Below, piece after piece: positions 4,101 to 60,785 of a stretch of 64,000 bases of DNA (the stretch's first letter is position 1; every line of letters starts with the position of its first letter). The position numbers were made by a program, and so were the translations under genes. The notes beneath the pieces are model-generated. The model was not told the DNA's origin, made no database searches, and saw nothing but the letters and a program-made list of their open reading frames with translations. The DNA is from Seison nebaliae (Eukaryota): contig JALJEE010000735.1 of the NCBI GenBank assembly GCA_023231475.1, positions 1-64,000 of the forward strand. Reading direction: 5' to 3'.

Positions 4101-5997
4101 ATAGTGATGATGATGATGATGATGATGATAATGATATGAATATAATAAATTTATTAAAATATTCAAAAATCGAATCGATCAAATTGAAGACATATTCCGA
4201 TAATCCTCATCCATTACCAGATGTTTATCGGATATATATCGATAGTATTCCATTATTGCAAAATGCTTTCACTTCAACCAATATTTATCGATTGAAATTT
4301 CTCAATATTCTTATTCGATATATTCCAACTGTCATATCTCAATCTAAAAATGAGATTGAGATAAAAAATAATTTTCGCCAATTCATTTCTTTGGTTCATG
4401 GAGAGATTTTGGTGATGTTGAATTGTCCCAATAGTTCTGGCGTTTTTTTGGCTTATCGCACCATCATTGAGATGACGAAAACCATTTTCAAATCGAATTT
4501 ATATGATGAATCGGATCATACGAATTTAGGTGAACAAGTCATCAATTATTTGAAAAGATTCATTTTCGTTAATTGTTTAACGATGGAATCATCTCCTCTT
4601 TTAACACAAACATCCATTCTAGCGTTGACGAGAGTGATTTATGAATATCGATTAGATTTTTTTGAAAATGAAAAAAACTTTTTAAAAGACAATTGTTTTC
4701 CGATAATTCTGTTGATGTTAAACAACATGAATAGAGATATCGCTACACCAAGTATTTATTGTTTACGAGTGATATTGATGGAAATTTTGGAAATGAAGAA
4801 AACGAAAAATTTACCGAAATTTTCTGATTTTATTTTGAGTAAAGTGTGTGAAAGTTTAATGAAATTATCTTCTGATATGAGATGTTTCCTTCGTCATAAA
4901 ATCAAATCGCTTCTTCAGTTTATTGTCCGACGTGGTTATGGTGAATGGATCCGTGTCAAAGTATCGAAAGATGAACATTTAACTAAACAACTGAAATATG
5001 TGATGAAGAGACAAAAAAAAATTACAAAAGAAAATGATGGAAAATCTGGGAAGAGTTTGATGGAAGTTGGTTCGACAACTGGTTCAGAAACGAAATCATT
5101 CGCCAGTTTGAAAACGATTGAGAAAGCGATCGATGATATAGAGGAGAGTGATGATGATGAAATCGAAACACATAAAAATTCGAAGAAATCAACATGGAGT
5201 CAACGTCGTCAACGATGGAAAGAGAGAGAACAAAGAAATATTTGGTTAATAGATGAAGAAGAAAATGAAGATGTGGAAGATCCGATAAATTTCTTAGATT
5301 TTGAAGCGGTCGCTGCTCGCATTTTCCGGAAGACATCGAACGATAAGAAGATGGAAGAACAAAATACAGAAAATGATGATGATGATGATGATGATATCGA
5401 TATATTCGAAGACGAAGAAACTGGAAAGTTAATTATTGGAAAAAATAATTCAACGAACAATAAGACAAAATTAATGGAATCGACAAATCATCTGAATCAA
5501 AAGAAACAATTGACGATTTCTGGAGAAAAAGATAATTATTTTGATGATGATGATGATAACGATGATGAACAGGATATGATGCTAAACGATATGAAATCAA
5601 CTTGGACGTCAAATACGAATAAGCGTAAAGATCAATTGAAAGAACATTTGGAAAGGGAACGATTGAAGAAGTTGGAGAAACAGAAAGCGTTCGAAAATAA
5701 AGTTATGAAGAATGTGGAATTAGGAACAAAATTTAAAGGAAAAGTTAGAAATTATATCATAACTTTTTTTTTCTAAATAATTTTCTTTTACAGAAAGGGA
5801 AAGGCGATGTAAAACGCAGTGGCGATTCGGAACCTTACGCTTATATTCCGATGCAGAAATCTTTATTAAATCGAAGGTTTTATTTTCATTTCATTTATTT
5901 TCTATTCAAATTTTATCTTTCAAATAGGAAACGATCGAAGTATGAAGGAATTGTTAAGCGTGTAATGAAAAAGAATCCGATTATCAAGAAAAAGTAA
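1169..5997 (+). CDS. RRP12: RRP12-like ribosomal RNA processing protein (3 exons: 1169-5743, 5794-5876, 5928-5997)
   Basis: N-terminal SWRKGESCISNP...FRDEANKKFF and spliced C-terminal KGKGDVKRSGDSEPYAYIPMQKSLLNRRKR resemble RRP12 terminal motifs; helical-repeat body; GT-AG introns 5744-5793 (50 nt) and 5877-5927 (51 nt) keep the frame. ATG at 1169 preferred to the TTG at 1106. Confidence 0.9.
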
Positions 5998-6237
5998 AAT
6001 TTTTATCGTAAATTTTAATTTTATTAAATTTGTCTGCTTGAAATTAATTAAATTTTCCACTACTCAATTCAAATAATCTATTAATGTGATCAAATGTATA
6101 TGATGAAAAGAATAATGATAAAATGTGAAGGATTACTATTTTTAGAACATCTAATAGTTTGTGAAATGATCTTAAATCAAATTCTCTGATTGTTGAGAAT
6201 AAACTAAAAAAGAGAAAATATAAAAAATGAGAATAAA

Positions 6238-58344: not shown

Positions 58345-58962
58345 TTCTTCTCTTCTTGAAGTTATTTAAATTTATACTAAACCTAAGAAACATTTCTCAA
58401 TATTTCTATTTTATTTATCATTTATTGCTTCTTCCGCATAATTGCTTAATTTACGCCTATTTTAGTTTATCATAACATTGCTTTCTCATTTATAATTGAA
58501 CCGATTAAAATATCCTAGAAATGACATTTCTCTTATTCCAACAAAACTACTTTTGAAGACGATTTTTAAATTCTGAAATTCGTTAAATTGTTAATTCATG
58601 AAAGATATTTAATAGTTTCACAATTTAATTGAATAATTTTATTTATTTATTATAAGATTAAATCCCCTCGGGCTAAATTAAAAATAAAATAAGATAACTG
58701 ACTGTTCACATTATCATTAATTTCTTTCCAATATCGATTTCATCTCGTAAATAATTAATAATCATTTCTAATTATAATAATTCATTATTCTTTCTTTAAA
58801 AAATTGAAAAAATAGTTAAACTTTTTATTGACAATGAATGGAAATGAAAAAGAATTAAAATTATCAGAATGAAAATGAAAGAAAATTTCCCCATGACAAT
58901 TGATTGAATTGAAACAGATATTTAATTTCACTAATAAACAGAATGATTGCATCTAATATATT

Positions 58963-60785
58963 CTAATAATTATTTGGTACTGGTTGATATGGAGCATACT
59001 TCTTTTTCTTATTCGATATCGTCATCCCACAAAACCCGATGGTTAAAATAATAAGTAAGAATAAAGCAGCAATGATGCCCATCATTATAAATTCTCCTAA
59101 AATAAAAAGCAGATAATCAAATGATGAAAGATTGAATTAGATTCATAAAATGAAATTATAGTTCAACGAACTCTTACTAAACGGTTCGTTTGATAACAAT
59201 TTACATTCGTTCACAATATTCTTTGGCATACGATCAGAATATGAATTCCACAATTTACCTACAGTACACGGAGCCGAACAATCTTTGAAGAGAAAGTTAA
59301 TGAATTAAAATATCTATTCGATTCTTTACTAACGAGGAATGTTCAACGGTTTCAAAGATACTTCATCAATCGTATCATTTCGAGCGAATAATTTCACGAT
59401 AAACTTATCCACATCTTTCCATATCGATAAAATAAGATGAGATTTAAGAAAAATATGAAACCATCAATTCCTATCGGTTTGTGTAATTCGAAAACGATTG
59501 CTGAAGCATATGGCAACACAAATGGAGGATCGAATAAATCTAATGTTTCGTACATTGCCGCCAAAGTAATATCATGCTAATAGATAATTAATTAAAAAAT
59601 TTGCCGATCGAAATTTAACTGCAGAATAAATGATCATTTTTGAATTGGCTACTTTCTCGTCTTTCTTGTAATGATATTTCATATTCTCCAAAAAATTCTT
59701 TAACATATATCCTACAATAAATAGAAATGTTATTATGAAATTCAATTTTCAATTTAGTTCATATGTAGAACCTCCTCGTAATTTTTTCATTTCTTTATTT
59801 GCATAAAATACAGTGAAGAATTGACGACTTTGATTGTAAATATAATTGAAAGTCGATTCATTGAGCCAGGTCGGTAAAGGAATATTATGTGCTTTCTAAA
59901 ATGAATTGAATTAACATTTCAATGAAATAAAATAGAAAAATGAACTCTACAAATTAATGTATCACTGATTGTGTCAAACGAGTCATATGTAATATTTGGA
60001 ACGCCAGTCCATTTTTCCAAATATTGGATCAATTCCTGAAATTGAAATTTCATAAAACTATTCCATCCAAATAATTAAGAACTTGATTATCTCTCATGAA
60101 ATTGGTGACCAATGATGATTCGAATGATTCATTGAGGAGTTTTGAGAATTTTGGACAATAAGAATTGACGTTCAATAACTGAACAAATTAGAAGATAATA
60201 TAAATCTAAAATGAATTAACTTGATCATGATAAGATGATTCCGTATGAATTGGTATTGGTTGCCATGGCATATTAGTCATCCATATGTCATGAGATGTCA
60301 CTGGAGGATATAAACCAGATAAATGAGCTTCAGCTGACATTAAAGTTCGATCTTTATCGGTACTGCGAATGTAAAACTGAAAATGGATTATCGATAAATT
60401 GATGATGGATTAATTGGAAACTTCGGAGATATCGAATGTTGAATTTAATAATGAATTGACATAACGTTTATTCATAAACTCTCCAAATTTGTGATGTTGT
60501 CGCTTACCAATATTAGTGAGTTCACCGTATGTCACATTCCATGAAACCTGATCGAATGGTAATGGTTTCAATGGTGATCTATCACCATGACGAAAGAGCT
60601 AAAGACAAATTTGATGAAAGATATTGTATTAGAGAAATCGAACTAACATATTGGACTTGAACCAATTGTGTTTGGTTCTGTTTGAAAAGTTTCACATCAG
60701 AAATTGAAGGGAATGCTTGCACAAATTGAAAGAGGATAATGAGAATGAGACAAATGAAAGACAATGAAAATATTCTTCTCTTCAT
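58963..60785 (-). CDS. Lysosomal/prostatic-type histidine acid phosphatase (ACP2-like), 11 exons
   Basis: Signal peptide; spliced LFRHGDRSP; IRSTDKDRTLMSAEAHLSGLYPP; WQPIPIHT; IYSA|HD; PYASAIVFELH; C-terminal TM helix and cytosolic YQPV (YxxPhi) motif; 10 GTT-AG introns. Confidence 0.95.

Follow-up and report, generated by a model that had tools for sequence, protein, structure and literature searches.

The window, as the stretch analysed here is called, is a single 64-kb piece of DNA from Seison nebaliae, classed in Rotifera, Seisonidae (contig JALJEE010000735.1 of assembly GCA_023231475.1, positions 1 to 64,000), and all counts for Seison come from it. It holds genes for FTCD, CFAP47, a lysosomal-type acid phosphatase, a GT7 glycosyltransferase and further intron-bearing proteins, and the 5′ splice sites (donors) of these genes have an altered form. 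DNA and protein data alone located 65 introns, whose first three nucleotides (nt) are GTT in 61, GTG in two, GTC in one and GTA in one, against a background GTT share of about 41% of all GTs in the window (1129/2781 and 1159/2813). As read from these sites, the Seison donor consensus is AA/GTT, with an A-rich exon end. A preliminary description of the same DNA had proposed a remodelled consensus, which these counts bear out; its expectation that AT-richness alone would give GTA as often as GTT was mistaken, since the chance share of GTT is actually about 41%.

Genes and introns of the window

Three genes correspond to deposited Seison nebaliae proteins: FTCD (SNEBB_003061), CFAP47 (SNEBB_003065) and the acid phosphatase (SNEBB_003067). 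Their introns were placed by back-mapping, in which each deposited protein was matched letter for letter to the DNA with no splice model; every break in the protein had exactly one GT/GC..AG solution. Overall, this gave GTT donors in 45/47 cases (p = 1.5e-15 against the 41% background, and p = 2e-8 even against 60%). FTCD (25026..27159, + strand), which can be aligned with vertebrate FTCD 1tt9 from one end to the other, contains 11 introns that are 43-75 nt long. All begin GTT, and their donors are at 25080, 25528, 25751, 25933, 26120, 26221, 26413, 26618, 26704, 26903 and 27043; each was also ranked first by the homologue hidden Markov model described below. CFAP47 (42163..55680, + strand) has 25 deposited introns, of which 23 are GTT and the others GTG (42551) and GTC (53438). 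Its deposited model omits a 27-nt in-frame exon (49653-49679) within a 205-nt intron; with this exon included the frame stays open, and the donor that follows at 49680 is GTT. The acid phosphatase (58963..60785, − strand) has 10 introns placed by back-mapping and homologue scoring, all GTT, with donors at 60647, 60421, 60220, 60082, 59945, 59771, 59619, 59461, 59333 and 59171; back-mapping gives 11/11 GTT if one also counts a first intron of 444 nt at 61258, which is doubtful.

The FTCD locus has two further peculiarities. Its 3′ end (26908-27163) has a 256-bp copy, 95.7% identical, at 28274-28529, which includes the last GTT intron and adjoins a multi-copy repeat at ~27650-28260. The protein is also 7 residues short of its vertebrate and bacterial homologues just after the 75-nt intron at 26704-26778, and no AG was seen where it would restore them.

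Introns in the remaining genes were placed mainly with a blind gene finder, which demands only GT, ignores the +3 base and was read at a posterior cut-off of 0.8; two GTT calls in a repeat (40664, 40836) were discarded before counting. The GT7 glycosyltransferase (28560..30250, − strand; Glyco_transf_7N, with an open 449-aa model) has seven introns, all GTT, with donors at 30222, 29703, 29458, 29299, 29045, 28895 and 28722. Four of the seven reached a posterior of at least 0.8 and three were placed by hand. The last two introns of an RRP12-like gene (+ strand; 5744-5793, GTTAGA, and 5877-5927, GTTTTA) have posteriors of 1.00 each; this gene has no Pfam match, and its name is taken from the preliminary description. 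Single introns were found in PIGW/GWT1 (19827..19879, − strand, donor 19879, GTTAGT; posterior 0.83, with a GWT1 Pfam match) and in a collagen-like gene (24018..24087, + strand, GTTTTT; posterior 0.86). A coiled-coil gene (20514..21220, + strand) has donors at 20514 (GTT), 20984 (GTT) and 21162 (GTG), with posteriors of 0.97, 0.97 and 1.00, and a zf-RING region (32456..33185, − strand) has donors at 33185 (GTT), 32674 (GTA), 32585 (GTT) and 32499 (GTT), with posteriors of 0.94, 0.98, 0.97 and 0.86.

Excluded from the set of 65 were candidates at 10728 (GTC), 10553, 32785/32806, 32425/32431, 20662/20668/20740, 21479/21494 and 61258, together with the introns of an orphan membrane gene and of an “HSP20-like” gene, which has no HSP20 Pfam match. 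The preliminary description had counted 40 introns as uniformly GTT. That statement holds for FTCD (11/11), the acid phosphatase (10), GT7 (7), the RRP12-like gene (2), PIGW (1) and the collagen-like gene (1), but could not be reproduced for the membrane gene, where only 3-4 candidate introns rather than 6 could be placed, with ambiguous donors, or for the HSP20-like gene, whose donors are likewise ambiguous. The exceptions it listed (GTG at 42551 and 21162, GTC at 53438 and the RING-gene GTA at 32674) are all real by back-mapping or the blind finder.

Elsewhere in the window, two intronless Pro-rich paralogues (17034-18353 and 56575-58344, + strand) have a common core of ~190 aa. No Pfam domain was matched by the first, and a search of metagenome contigs turned up no relative. 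An intergenic region at 13700-14330 appears by eye to be a local array of imperfect ~30-60 nt repeats.

Donor consensus and conversion of old introns

All 65 introns have the GT..AG ends of U2-type spliceosomal introns, and taking them out restores an open homologous frame. Their median length is 49 nt (range 40-115 nt, with all but the one of 115 nt falling within 40-75 nt). The share of GTT is far lower at GTs that are not used as donors: 28/66 inside introns and 42/137 among nearby unused GTs taken as decoys; of the unused GTs lying 40-62 nt upstream of an acceptor, 12/37 are GTA. On the exon side, A is found at −3 in 34, at −2 in 41 and at −1 in 43 introns, with G at −1 in 13. On the intron side, +3 is T in 61 and C in one (a pyrimidine in 62/65), +4 is A in 29 and T in 22, +5 is G in 16 and +6 is T in 38. 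The frequency of +4T is below background and that of +4A barely above it (p = 0.047); +6G (4/65) and +7T (35/65) are at background. The preliminary description saw little conservation from +4 to +6, which is correct in general except for a residual enrichment of +5G (16/65 against a background of 6.7%, p = 4e-6). Sorted by class, no donor is GTRAG, three are AG//GT, 31 are AA//GT and 13 are GTTAG, and GTTTG and GTTNAG occur once each. U12-type introns have the donor motif GTATCC, and no donor of that type is in the list of donor hexamers from the window.

These counts indicate that two donor positions have changed, +3 and probably −1; the G-to-A change at −1 had escaped the preliminary description. 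The codons at the junctions bear on the ancestral state. In four genes, Lys, Glu or Gln is the last residue before 15/28 phase-0 junctions (p = 4e-5); we take this excess to be a remnant of an ancestral AG/GT site. All 15 of these codons end in A, compared with 21% G-ending among such codons overall (p = 0.053). At the other end of the intron, the acceptors of the 47 deposited introns are TAG (28), CAG (10) and AAG (9); the T-rich tract is weak and a branch point is not evident. The motif YTRAY is found in 34/65 introns against 35.7 in shuffles, which is no excess.

Since the deposited models could be circular, two tests blind to the +3 base were made. In the first, all open-frame GT/GC..AG options up to 45 nt away were scored against profiles made with non-Seison homologues only, 76 for FTCD and 36 for the acid phosphatase. 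The GTT donor ranked first at 21/21 FTCD and acid phosphatase introns, in four of which only one option existed. In the second, the blind finder was applied to sense-strand introns outside its training set, where GTT was called in 15/18 cases, compared with 3/18 for antisense and intergenic shadow calls (Fisher p = 1.5e-4).

Evidence on transcripts comes from other genes. Runs X1 and X2 contain the introns as DNA, and no reads of X6 and X7 aligned. Gaps that a transcript map writes as deletions presumably score poorly under a human splice model; this assumption rests on the behaviour of GMAP and was not used as support. In the available part of the Seison transcript map (supplement 2, PMC8351084), at least 32 distinct gaps of 42-92 nt, counted by eye, are written as deletions and at least four gaps below 100 nt as introns. 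The exon and intron length patterns of FTCD, CFAP47 and the acid phosphatase were not found among the matches listed there.

The age of the introns was addressed with other acid phosphatase loci, a comparison of the kind that the preliminary description had called for. A scan of 80 loci, mostly intronless, flagged six as split, and three were read (L071, L075 and L076). L075, an animal locus without placement in the tree, has a GC content of 28%. Its introns are 47-63 nt long, and 5/6 of them lie at the same codon and in the same phase as those of Seison. At the five shared positions its donors are GTAAGT, GTATGT, GTATAA, GTAAAT and GTTTGA; those of Seison, in the same order, are GTTAGT, GTTAAT, GTTCTT, GTTCAT and GTTCTA. 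L071 carries GTAAGT at one position shared by L075 and Seison. The positions are thus ancestral, and with GTA in four of the five in L075, conversion of old introns is shown for the acid phosphatase. L075 as a whole has GTA in 5/6 introns at 28% GC, so AT-richness is not the cause; on both points the preliminary description, which had argued for conversion from FTCD intron positions, is supported. The acid phosphatase introns do not show the novel, lineage-specific positions of introner-derived new introns: 5/6 comparable positions are common to Seison and L075.

Short animal fragments, taken as unspliced genomic gene calls, give a similar picture at Seison junction 60220. The codon after it is Val in 49/75 fragments, with Val-Ser or Val-Arg in 38, which is what read-through of a GTNAG donor would give; among 62 longer proteins, Val-Ser is found at the same codon only three times. 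By eye, L071 also has an apparent GC donor, GCAAGT, at ~3636, matching the Seison acid phosphatase intron at 59945. A second lineage is present in runs X2-X5, which are from one sample. Over 25023-26908 of the window it is ~15% diverged in exons, and its depth is at most about one sixth. In three runs its alignment to FTCD exon 4 reaches only as far as the +3 T of intron 4 (25935), which suggests, at this one site, that the second lineage keeps GTT while +4 onward differs.

Possible recognition of the altered donors

That 61/65 donors are GTT, including old introns that are GTA in another animal, makes it likely that the Seison splicing machinery reads intron starts differently. The explanation we favour, tentatively and at less than even confidence, is a U1 small nuclear RNA (snRNA) whose 5′ arm has A instead of U at position 6; a variant U1 arm was among the mechanisms proposed in the preliminary description. 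The partner of A6 would be intron +3 U, and there may be a second change, U in place of C at position 9 (U9), whose partner would be exon −1 A. The helix would span −2 to +3, with +4A and +5G optional, and an intron length of ~40-60 nt would supply the remaining specificity. Relaxation of recognition would leave ~40-50% T at +3, so 61/65 T together with the lack of GTRAG sites argues for more than relaxation; because +3 is fixed rather than drifting to background, positive selection for U at this position would be expected. The enrichment of +5G, but not of +6G, points to pairing in the normal register. In pairing-energy comparisons of the 65 donors with the 137 decoys, the standard U1 arm in that register has an area under the curve (AUC) of 0.46 (95% range 0.38-0.55), rising to 0.81 with A6 and 0.91 with A6 and U9; for A6 and U9 it is 0.92 among GTT sites alone. 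A precedent comes from Entamoeba, the sole published +3U lineage found, whose U1 arm, ACAAAC, matches its donors and whose U6 retains the ACAGA box (bioRxiv 10.1101/2022.06.08.495308). The broader proposal, that the major spliceosome was re-coded by U1 A6 and U9 and moved its donors from AG/GTRAG to AA/GTT genome-wide without intron loss, is held more tentatively still.

Several points weigh against this interpretation. The AUCs of the variant arms are circular, since the arms were fitted to the same donors, and show only what would work. Counted simply as Watson-Crick pairs, the standard arm retains some power to tell donors from decoys (AUC 0.65), and the A6 and U9 helix is weak (median −2.7 kcal/mol). 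The +5G signal can be read by U6 alone. The −1A preference may partly be codon bias, given p of only 0.053 for the junction codons, and AA/GTT is not depleted in coding sequence (p = 0.12). Every junction in the set of 65 is placed by DNA and protein, and at acid phosphatase intron 10 (59171) the donor outscores an in-frame GTAAGA at 59177, 6 nt upstream, by only 2.1 bits. In most lineages with altered donors, according to the parts of the literature covered, U1 is unchanged: in Saccharomycotina, Thecamonas and Micromonas, and also in the tunicate Fritillaria (bioRxiv 10.1101/2025.08.15.670264). The window itself has no Rfam match, and so no snRNA, and a U1-like pattern had no match in viral contigs.

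The Fritillaria case, where donors changed with an identical U1 5′ end and altered N6-methyladenosine (m6A) (bioRxiv 10.1101/2025.08.15.670264, in the part available), is consistent with a doubtful but substantial alternative to the U1 variant. In this model U1 is unchanged and plays a minor role, and the site is fixed later or by protein, with the narrow range of intron lengths (40-75 nt, with one of 115) helping to locate it. U5 loop 1 is U-rich. It could pair with the A-rich exon end seen at −3, −2 and −1 (34, 41 and 43 of 65), while +3U wobbles with U6 G44; alternatively, a changed U1C, LUC7 or PRP8-type protein or an snRNA modification would grip the U. In published work, as far as it was accessible, +3 lies opposite U6 G44, and the Entamoeba authors say that GUUUGU could pair better with U6 (bioRxiv 10.1101/2022.06.08.495308). 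A G44 wobble, however, predicts that +3C would do as well or better, and +3C is found only once in 65. Exon-side and +5G strength would also be expected to trade off, and no significant trade-off is seen (p = 0.25).

An improbable third model, absent from the preliminary description, has standard U1 pairing in a register shifted by +1, with U10 opposite −1A, C9 opposite +1G and A7 opposite +3U. It covers both −1A and +3T with no snRNA mutation and no fitted parameter, its AUC is 0.69 against 0.46 in the normal register, and such pairing has been proven in human cells (PMC4856993, as far as available). The same source indicates from melting controls that the helix relies on +6G, which here is at background (4/65); GTTNAG is found in 1/65 sites while +5G is enriched, and the median energy is +0.4 kcal/mol.

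Loss of METTL16 (U6 m6A) or SNRNP27K, a change of U6 handling that the preliminary description had suggested, fits poorly and is very improbable. Such losses move usage off GURAG, a class absent here (0/65), but they favour +4U and AG//GU, and the Seison sites have +4A in 29, +4T, below its background, in 22 and AG//GT in three; the literature covered, in its available parts, has no link to +3U. Artefact or mutation bias, with AT-rich DNA and a self-trained gene predictor yielding apparent GTT donors, could draw on GTT being the commonest GT triplet (41%), on junctions that rest on DNA and protein and on a method for the deposited models that is not stated in the available part of the genome paper, but is extremely improbable given the homologue-only scoring (21/21), the blind finder (15/18 against 3/18, p = 1.5e-4) and the 28%-GC animal with 47-63 nt introns and 5/6 GTA.

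Comparison with known systems

Donor remodelling in this intron-rich animal is real and strong, and apparently undescribed. No published description of GTT donors in Seison, rotifers, Adineta or Pomphorhynchus was found in a search outside which most subscription papers fell. In the parts available, the main text of the Seison genome paper does not mention snRNAs and refers to splice sites only in connection with homeodomains, and a lamin paper, a bdelloid tubulin paper and a minor-intron survey have nothing on +3. The published cases of an altered donor consensus are concentrated among intron-poor protists and yeasts, and in the portions of this literature covered it is debated whether snRNAs co-evolve with them; here, an intron-rich animal has fixed +3 U and −1 A in inherited introns. 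The public Seison assembly makes the question of donor and snRNA co-evolution directly testable (U1, U5, U6 and a few proteins), and the time of the switch can be worked out by examining bdelloids, monogononts and acanthocephalans. Poor scores for Seison donors are to be expected from splice-site models that learned from other animals. If true, a re-coded U1 would mean that the splice code switched in a metazoan rich in introns, whose donors fall in neither known class.

The closest parallel is with Entamoeba, where donors are GUUUGU(U) and the U1 arm has co-evolved to AACAAAC (Roy and Bowser, bioRxiv 10.1101/2022.06.08.495308, in the part available). Seison likewise has +3 U nearly without exception (61/65) and ordinary GT-AG ends. 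Entamoeba, however, is a protist with few introns and a rigid motif of 6-7 nt (88-90% GUUUGU), whereas Seison is an intron-rich animal in which only +3 is fixed, +4A exceeds +4T and −1 is A. The rigid Entamoeba motif is not seen in Seison, given GTTTG in 1/65, +4T in 22 and +5G in 16. Shifted-register 5′ splice sites (Roca and Krainer 2009; Tan et al. PMC4856993) have in common with Seison the −1A (43/65) and a +3 pyrimidine (62/65). In the human cases, as given in the accessible text, such sites are rare and need +6G, whereas in Seison nearly all donors are GTT and +6G stays at the background level.

The switch from +4A to +4U linked to METTL16 and SNRNP27K involves two donor classes, NN//GURAG and AG//GU (PMC10581693, PMC11732430 and PMC11347140, in part); Caenorhabditis elegans donors are 44% GURAG and 32% AG//GU. 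Seison resembles it in showing a change of consensus with loss of GURAG, but its donors have changed at +3 and −1 rather than at +4, and 62/65 sites are in neither class. Fritillaria borealis is, like Seison, an animal with changed donors, in its case genome-wide (bioRxiv 10.1101/2025.08.15.670264, in the part available). Its introns are non-GT/AG, transposon-derived and new, with the U1 end unchanged, whereas Seison keeps GT-AG ends in old introns that have been converted.

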